Assembly: GCF_050320075.1 (NCBI RefSeq)
Contig: NZ_CP190018.1
Direction: 5' to 3' (one strand)
Length of the DNA: 64,000 nt
Source: Escherichia coli
GTDB taxonomy: Bacteria > Pseudomonadota > Gammaproteobacteria > Enterobacterales > Enterobacteriaceae
Below the pieces are notes generated by a model that had not been told where the DNA came from, searched no databases, and saw only the letters and a list, made by a program, of their open reading frames with translations. A program made the position numbers and the translations under genes. Positions 2,005 through 20,961 of the stretch are shown in pieces (within the stretch, counting starts at the first letter, position 1; every line of letters starts with the position of its first letter).

Positions 2005-3982
<1,978 letters not shown>

Positions 3983-19350: not shown

Positions 19351-20082
19351 ATGAAGATGTTGCGCGATCCGCTGTTCTGGCTCATTGCTCTGTTTGTGGC
19401 GCTGATTTTCTGGCTGCCTTACAGCCAGCCGCTGTTTGCTGCCTTGTTCCCACAACTGCCACGACCCGTTTATCAGCAAGAAAGTTTTGCTGCTCTGGCA
19501 CTGGCTCATTTCTGGCTGGTGGGAATTTCGAGTTTGTTTGCGGTGATCATTGGCACTGGTGCAGGAATTATTGTTACTCGCCCGTGGGGCGCGGAATTTC
19601 GCCCACTGGTGGAAACTATTGCCGCCGTTGGACAGACTTTTCCGCCCGTCGCGGTGCTGGCGATTGCCGTTCCGGTGATTGGGTTTGGTCTGCAACCCGC
19701 GATTATCGCCTTGATCCTTTATGGTGTGCTGCCCGTCCTGCAGGCAACACTTGCCGGGCTGGGAGCGATTGATGCCAGCGTGACAGAAGTTGCGAAAGGT
19801 ATGGGAATGAGCCGTGGTCAGCGACTGCGTAAGGTCGAGCTACCGCTGGCGGCTCCGGTGATTCTGGCGGGCGTGCGAACTTCGGTGATTATCAACATTG
19901 GTACGGCGACGATCGCCTCAACGGTAGGGGCCAGCACGCTGGGTACGCCGATCATCATCGGGCTTAGCGGATTTAATACCGCGTATGTGATCCAGGGGGC
20001 GTTACTGGTGGCACTGGCGGCGATCATTGCAGACCGCCTGTTTGAAAGGCTGGTGCAGGCGCTTAGCCAGCACGCAAAATAA
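19351..20082 (+). CDS. yehW: ABC transporter permease YehW
   Basis: 243-aa polytopic permease [31 protein letters not shown]... Confidence 0.9.
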
Positions 20083-20170
20083 AGGTATAACCTGCGAGCA
20101 TGACGCCACCAATTCCGCCTAACGCCATAAACAGGAACAGGGCGATGACCCCAATTTTAGCTATGCGCAT
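20063..20170 (-). CDS. yohO: 35-aa small membrane protein YohO (not in ORF track)
   Basis: Hand translation: [35 protein letters not shown]; ATG 20168-20170; 3' end overlaps yehW 3' end by 20 bp on opposite strand. Confidence 0.7.
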
Positions 20171-20229
20171 AATGCACTCCTTATGTTAACGAAAGGATTG
20201 TACAGTAAAGCGCATTTGTTAACGAATCA

Positions 20230-20961
20230 TTAAATGCCGAGTGGGAAAATATCATGGCCTTGTTCCTGCCAACTGGTGAGTTGCTGCTGTTGGGCGGAGG
20301 TTCGATTTTCACCGCACCACACCAGCAATGTACGGCCTTCGAACAGTTCAGGGCGTAGTTGATTGAGCGAGTGGGCGAGGACATCAATGCGCCATCCTTG
20401 TTGACTGGCAATCCAGCCCTCCAGCCACAGACGGGTGGTATCATGAATATTCCAGCCAACCACCAACGCATCTTTACCCTGTTTTTTACGTGCCGAAGCC
20501 AGGCAAATGGCGATGTAGTTGATCAGTACGCCGTCGAGGATCGCCAGCAGCGCCTGGAGAGTCGGTTGTTGGCACTGAAGTCGTCGGCGCAGAGGAATAA
20601 ACAGATGTGTGGTGAGCGTCTGGGCGGGGTAATCCTGACCGCGCTCTTTGATCCACGTTCGCAGGCTATGCAGATTGCCGCTTTGCAGGTAAGTCAGTAA
20701 TGTTTCTTGCTGATCGCGCCAGCCGTTCTGCACATCAACATTTTCATTACTGAGCAGCATTTTAACTTTGCTGACCTGCACGCCGTTGTCGATCCAGCGT
20801 TTGATCTCGCGGATCCGGTCAATATCGGCATCGTTGAACAGCCGATGGCCGCCGTCTGTCCGTTGCGGTTTCAGCAATCCGTAACGCCTCTGCCACGCGC
20901 GTAACGTGACAGGGTTAATATCACAAAGCAACGCCACTTCACCAATTGTGTAAAGCGCCAT
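20230..20961 (-). CDS. mlrA: MerR-family transcriptional regulator MlrA (csgD activator)
   Basis: 243-aa ORF MALYTIGEVALLCDINPVTLRAWQRRYGLLKPQRTDGGHRLFNDADIDRIREIKRWI (MerR HTH). Confidence 0.9.
   Translation of the reverse strand: MALYTIGEVALLCDINPVTLRAWQRRYGLLKPQRTDGGHRLFNDADIDRIREIKRWIDNGVQVSKVKMLLSNENVDVQNGWRDQQETLLTYLQSGNLHSLRTWIKERGQDYPAQTLTTHLFIPLRRRLQCQQPTLQALLAILDGVLINYIAICLASARKKQGKDALVVGWNIHDTTRLWLEGWIASQQGWRIDVLAHSLNQLRPELFEGRTLLVWCGENRTSAQQQQLTSWQEQGHDIFPLGI

Follow-up and report, generated by a model that had tools for sequence, protein, structure and literature searches.

The window analyzed here is a stretch of 64,000 nucleotides of Escherichia coli DNA. In it, the permease gene yehW and the small-protein gene yohO converge and share the last 20 nucleotides of their coding regions (20063–20082). 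This overlap is real, already present in the reference annotation, and ordinary. Our analysis indicates that it is most probably a passive and evolutionarily old tail-to-tail overlap of two real genes, in which yohO mainly governs the shared sequence and yohO transcription is terminated by Rho within the partner gene. We think it unlikely to be a dedicated regulatory device.

Geometry of the yehW-yohO overlap

The yehW coding region (19351–20082, plus strand) encodes 243 residues, and its first in-frame stop is TAA at 20080–20082. YehW is an ABC-transporter permease, matching the Pfam family PF00528 (BPD_transp_1) with 97.6 bits against a cut-off of 26.4. It is the permease subunit of the OsmF-YehYXW glycine betaine ABC transporter, and its gene is the last of the operon. 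RefSeq gives the gene order as yehY-yehX-yehW. The yohO coding region (20063–20170, minus strand) encodes 35 residues, starts with ATG at 20170 and has its first in-frame stop, TAA, at 20065–20063. The shared 20 nucleotides encode (L)SQHAK-stop in YehW and (F)ILRAG-stop in YohO. Two real coding genes on opposite strands thus share their 3′ coding ends, which makes them a convergent overlapping pair. Upstream of yohO on the same strand is mlrA (20230–20961, minus strand), separated from it by a 59-nucleotide spacer and possibly co-transcribed with it.

An earlier sequence-only reading had placed the yehW stop at 20080–20082 and the end of yohO at 20063, and had proposed a 20-bp convergent overlap. 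The open reading frames and the RefSeq annotation of two strains bear out these positions and the identities it gave to both genes. In strain M217 yehW ends at locus position 2683 and yohO occupies 2664–2771, giving the same 20-nucleotide overlap. In K-12 MG1655 the overlap is also 20 nucleotides, between yohO (b4542) at 2215657–2215764 (+) and yehW (b2128) at 2215745–2216476 (−). The arrangement in MG1655 is identical and differs in nothing of substance, the window being from another E. coli strain; 5 of 501 nucleotides differ in this region. The stretch is 100% identical to that of M217 and other strains. Of 5426 complete E. coli genomes, 5423 contain the region, and both genes are annotated in all of the matches listed, which are from E. 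coli and have identities between 97.7% and 100%.

The overlap is conserved in Enterobacteriaceae

We compared 80 yehW loci, each from a different Enterobacteriaceae species. A convergent yohO is present in 79 of them and intact in 78. One exception, locus L075, has no yohO. In the other, L007 from Citrobacter amalonaticus AUH_CA_2023_1, yohO (about 3216–3320) is disrupted near its start. The damage is confined to the first 11 codons and spares the remaining codons and the overlap, so that this copy is a pseudogene unless the assembly contains a frameshift. Conservation of both frames in the overlap had been proposed as a check on the sequence-only reading, and both are intact in 78 of the 80 species.

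The length of the overlap in these species is 14, 17, 20 or 26 nucleotides. The 20-nucleotide form is found in Escherichia, Citrobacter, Salmonella, Cedecea, Buttiauxella and others. The 26-nucleotide form, in which both proteins are two residues longer, is found in Enterobacter, Klebsiella, Kosakonia, Leclercia and others. Two Enterobacter isolates have 17 nucleotides and one Pantoea has 14. The differences come from changes at the YohO C-terminus and from a 6-nucleotide insertion that lengthens both proteins. All four lengths equal 2 modulo 3. The phase is therefore fixed, with yehW codon positions 1, 2 and 3 opposite yohO positions 1, 3 and 2, denoted (123:132). A differently placed yohO stop in orthologues had been named as grounds for doubting the overlap. 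The stop does move, producing YohO forms of 34, 37 and 59 residues, but the overlap and its phase are still kept in 78 of the 80 species. This distribution indicates that the overlap is ancient within Enterobacteriaceae.

yohO is a genuine gene

The coding overlap would not be a true one if yohO were a chance antisense reading frame or if one of the two stops were misplaced. Spurious antisense frames of 30–40 codons are frequent on both strands nearby, and a length of 35 codons alone is at chance level. The local copy of Pfam-A also has no family that matches YohO (20066–20170), which reflects a gap in the library version and not a biological difference; homologues of YohO carry the precomputed assignment PF27791 (UPF0387_membrane).

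Several lines of evidence nevertheless place yohO above chance. YohO matches the NCBIfam equivalog NF010225 (‘protein YohO’) with 80.1 bits against a cut-off of 57, and residues 1–35 align with profile positions 1–35. A Shine-Dalgarno sequence, AAGGAG (20177–20182, minus strand), lies 6 nucleotides upstream of the ATG, and its CTCC(T) columns are near-invariant in both major species groups. For the analysis of codon positions, column entropies were calculated separately for 33 species with the 20-nucleotide overlap and 42 species with the 26-nucleotide overlap. Outside the overlap, the mean column entropy of yohO in these two groups is 1.04 and 1.12 at the third position, compared to 0.20 and 0.08 at the second. 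This coding periodicity is seen across 75 species, and the frame is intact in 78 of 80. Top-down mass spectrometry has detected YohO (PMC12529367), and Ribo-seq is reported to give a profile in the correct frame (bioRxiv 10.1101/2020.05.05.079178). The possibility that yohO is not translated, which the earlier reading named as one that would refute it, is contradicted by these reports in E. coli. Both stops are the first in their frames. Together, the equivalog match, conservation, Shine-Dalgarno sequence, mass spectrometry, Ribo-seq and first in-frame stops exclude an annotation artefact, to which we give almost no credence.

YohO belongs to the UPF0387 family. It has about 35 residues, with one hydrophobic helix and a highly conserved core. 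M1, K5, M15, A16, G19, G22, V23, M24, L25, G27 and Y28 are invariant in the alignment. Its membrane localization is credited to Hemm 2008 in the citing preprint (bioRxiv 10.1101/2020.05.05.079178). The family is small. A profile search of 1.84 billion representative proteins returned 38 hits, all of them short, and the named source genomes are all Enterobacteriaceae or Enterobacterales.

Lineages without the overlap

Ten divergent YohO representatives were traced to their contigs. The geometry was re-derived from the DNA for L083–L099, and that of L100, L102 and L103 was taken from called-gene coordinates only. Six of the ten overlap a yehW-type permease gene by 20 nucleotides (L083, L084, L097–99, L100, L102 and L103). 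In L089 the stop of a YohO relative (2501–2680) abuts the stop of the yehW-like gene, with 0 nucleotides between them, and in L092/93 an 11-nucleotide gap separates yohO from the permease gene. The remaining two, L086/87 and L094, have no yehW operon, and yohO faces a NUDIX gene or bglX instead. L075 is the converse case, with a yehW of 241 residues that faces pta across 58 nucleotides. The existence of lineages in which the genes abut or are gapped, and in which either gene occurs without the other, demonstrates that the overlap is not obligatory.

Two further observations were made in these contigs. The YohO relative in L089 has 59 residues, with a long C-terminal extension rich in Ala, Pro and Ser, showing that the C-terminus of the family is plastic. 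The yohO homologues in L086/L087 (2501–2608) and L094 (2501–2608), which lack the osmF-yehYXW operon, adjoin bglX. In E. coli, bglX lies on the far side of the osmF-yehYXW operon, which thus acts as a module that is inserted or deleted between yohO and bglX.

The gene upstream of yohO is variable and can be mlrA, metG, or a gene for a ferritin, a TonB-dependent receptor, an EamA protein or a DinG-like helicase. Whatever this gene is, yohO adjoins a yehW-type permease gene in 79 of the 80 yehW loci (78 intact) and in 8 of the 10 divergent representatives. Such linkage is what a shared function would predict, and YohO, a membrane protein with one helix, has a highly conserved core. It could accordingly be an accessory small subunit or regulator of OsmF-YehYXW, like other small membrane proteins that bind transporters. 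However, physical overlap alone explains the linkage. In addition, two lineages have yohO beside bglX and no yehW operon next to it. yohO also belongs to a separate transcription unit, on the strand opposite to yehW, and YehW-type permeases are far more widespread than the YohO family with its 38 representatives. We consider a role of YohO in the transporter very unlikely.

The yohO frame mainly dictates the shared sequence

In the body of yehW, the column entropy is about 1.2 at the third codon position and about 0.17 at the second. This pattern is flipped in the overlap. For the 20- and 26-nucleotide groups, respectively, the yehW third-position entropy drops to 0.47 and 0.09 (Mann-Whitney p=0.002 and 1.5e-5) and the second-position entropy rises to 0.80 and 0.73 (p=8e-4 and 5.5e-6), in tests that treat columns as independent and ignore phylogenetic non-independence. 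The flipped pattern is the periodicity of yohO itself, unchanged up to the final codon of that gene. In the ten yehW codons immediately upstream of the overlap, all three positions are variable (0.56–1.35), so the C-terminal tail of YehW after the DRLFERL motif is weakly constrained. Third positions of yohO vary somewhat less in the overlap than outside it, 0.80 versus 1.08 (p=0.13) and 0.73 versus 1.16 (p=0.035) in the two groups, again with columns treated as independent and phylogeny ignored. yehW thus seems to add a modest constraint of its own. The sequence of the overlap therefore appears to be dictated mainly by the coding needs of yohO, with the YehW tail largely a passenger.

The yehW stop is closely tied to a conserved dipeptide in YohO. 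In the window, the stop TAA at 20080–20082 is the reverse complement of the junction between the codons for Phe30 (TTT) and Ile31 (ATT). In all 78 species the stop reads T-R-A opposite an NTY-ATH codon pair, which encodes Phe, Val or Leu followed by Ile. It is TAA where the first YohO codon ends in T and TGA where it ends in C, with no exception in the 78 species. Whether the overlap has 17, 20 or 26 nucleotides, the stop comes from this one dipeptide. Nine species have Val or Leu in place of Phe30 (20081–20083 in the window), and in all nine the codon ends in a pyrimidine. The yehW stop is thereby kept as TAA or TGA. This hints at selection for the stop, acting from yehW on a synonymous site of yohO, the number of independent events being small. 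Both the YehW tail and its stop thus seem to impose some constraint, and are not pure passengers.

Transcript ends at the junction

A 3′ end of the yohO mRNA has been mapped by Term-seq to MG1655 2215813 (+) and classified as ‘primary: yohO; antisense: yehW’ (Adams et al., 2021; PMC7815308). The entry occurs three times in the three-condition table of that study (Supplementary file 1). In the window it corresponds to 20014 on the minus strand, 49 nucleotides past the yohO stop. The same study reports a Rho termination region antisense to yehW at MG1655 2215995 (+), with a Rho score of 5.6 and p=9e-16 (Supplementary file 2), and its peak maps to 19832 (minus strand). The sequence-only reading held that each transcript is antisense to the 3′ end of the other gene. 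This agrees with the published yohO 3′ end, which lies 69 nucleotides into the yehW coding region, and a complete yehW mRNA must span the last 20 nucleotides of yohO. As yohO transcripts enter yehW, the 3′ ends of the two mRNAs are complementary. We found no mapped 3′ end of yehW itself.

The yohO 3′ end lies 5 nucleotides after a 7-bp hairpin, GGCGGUC-UGCAAU-GAUCGCC (20019–20038, minus strand), in the yohO 3′ untranslated region and within the yehW coding region. The hairpin has no U tract and is only partly conserved. As a conserved RNA structure it was rejected, since at least 6 of its 7 pairs are kept in 40 of 78 species and RNAalifold gives no consensus structure for the region across the 78. 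It is probably a by-product of the conserved YehW A-I-I-A-D-R codons and not a selected RNA element.

No intrinsic or bidirectional terminator was found at the junction, where a G+C-rich hairpin with A and U tracts is absent. The terminator scan called only one weak minus-strand site, inside yohO and at the chance rate, and none in Enterobacter. Neither strand gives an RNA fold better than those of shuffled controls (z −1.68 and −0.41), and the Rfam search gave only matches at chance level. The two genes have no intergenic DNA between them, and hence no shared intrinsic terminator. Bidirectional intrinsic terminators likewise serve convergent ends that lie close together, but they differ from this junction in having a G+C-rich hairpin flanked by A and U tracts, whereas the yohO 3′ end has no U tract and lies near a region of Rho termination. 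Based on the published ends, we infer that transcription of yohO continues into yehW for up to about 250 nucleotides, antisense to that gene, before Rho terminates it, and that the transcripts are then shortened as far as the hairpin.

On the upstream side, no Term-seq 3′ end is listed between mlrA and yohO (Adams et al., 2021; PMC7815308). The scan called no sigma-70 consensus promoter for yohO. A −10-like TACAAT (20202–20197, minus strand) upstream of yohO is conserved and reads TATAAT in the Enterobacter/Klebsiella group. The mlrA-yohO spacer (20171–20229) contains a 10-nucleotide direct repeat, TGTTAACGAA, at 20184–20193 and 20217–20226. The repeat includes the palindrome GTTAAC, and its two copies bracket the −10-like element. 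From its sequence, this region may be a promoter of yohO or a regulator site. Another Term-seq 3′ end of the same data set (PMC7815308), MG1655 2214904, maps to 20923 (minus strand), 38 nucleotides into the mlrA reading frame, and could reflect either early termination or regulation at the 5′ end of mlrA.

Complementary 3′ ends raise the question of a functional excludon. Convergent transcription of yohO, or of mlrA-yohO, against osmF-yehYXW would then cause polymerase collision, RNase III cleavage of the paired ends, or both, and selection would keep the overlap. Convergent excludons are opposite-strand neighbors with overlapping transcripts, and yohO-yehW is listed for MG1655 among 165 such pairs seen in at least 50% of 58 RNA-seq samples (ExcludonFinder, NAR 2025; PMC12288877). 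The yohO mRNA reaches at least 69 and up to about 250 nucleotides antisense into yehW, and the overlap is conserved across the family. However, an excludon is defined by its outcome, mutually exclusive expression through interference or RNase III, and for this pair that outcome is hypothetical. The listing follows automatically from overlapping coding regions, and speaks of transcript overlap and not of its effect. The overlap of the present pair also includes coding sequence and is not confined to untranslated regions. Conservation is explained by the coding constraints described above, the antisense segment contains a hairpin whose structure is not conserved, and in some lineages the genes abut, lie 11 nucleotides apart, or yehW is missing. 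The osmF operon and mlrA are both sigma-S dependent, which argues against mutually exclusive expression. We therefore regard a functional excludon as unlikely.

A broader proposal is that retention of the overlap across the family is itself selected, either with the yohO 3′ untranslated region as a cis-antisense brake on osmF-yehYXW and vice versa, or with YohO belonging to the betaine transporter as a hitherto unrecognized accessory subunit and the overlap locking the two genes together. We consider this distinctly improbable.

Discussion

The passive overlap that we favor has many parallels among short convergent overlaps, as surveyed by Lillo and Krakauer (2007; PMC2174442). The pair shares with them the arrangement of 3′ ends on opposite strands and the phase (123:132), which is the commonest for convergent overlaps shorter than about 50 bp (PMC2174442). 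Among E. coli convergent overlaps longer than 4 bp, 46% are in this phase, compared to 39% expected from stop-codon mutation (PMC2174442). The same survey counted 58 convergent overlaps in E. coli and found an intrinsic terminator in only 20% of the genes involved (PMC2174442); yehW and yohO, which lack one, resemble the other 80% or so. Like short convergent overlaps in general, the pair is consistent with an origin by stop-codon mutation (PMC2174442). It differs in being longer than the modal overlap of 4 nucleotides, and about 19% of the 35-residue yohO gene lies within it.

These findings suggest how the overlap may have arisen and persisted. yohO and the osmF-yehYXW operon would have started as neighbors, and the yehW frame would then have extended into yohO, most likely because the yehW stop codon was lost or shifted. 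The frame ends where the antisense of the conserved YohO hydrophobic-Ile codon pair (TTY-ATH) reads T-R-A. The weakly constrained cytoplasmic tail of YehW runs into the 3′ end of yohO, its last residues varying as passengers. Once overlapping, the genes could no longer be separated without damage to one of them, and the overlap would freeze the pair together. According to the published data, the yohO mRNA runs antisense into yehW and is stopped by Rho, and exonuclease trimming would produce the 3′ end at the hairpin. One counterpoint is that the pair stays together while the upstream neighbor of yohO changes, which a functional link would predict as well.

The pair itself is already known from the reference annotation and from the catalogue of convergent excludons. 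Our analysis adds that the overlap is ancient in Enterobacteriaceae, that the small gene rather than the large one mainly dictates the shared sequence, and that the yehW stop is fixed by a conserved YohO dipeptide. The pair can serve as a neat textbook case of the maintenance of a convergent overlap. It also has a practical consequence: engineering the 3′ end of yehW, or deleting either yehW or yohO, touches the other gene.
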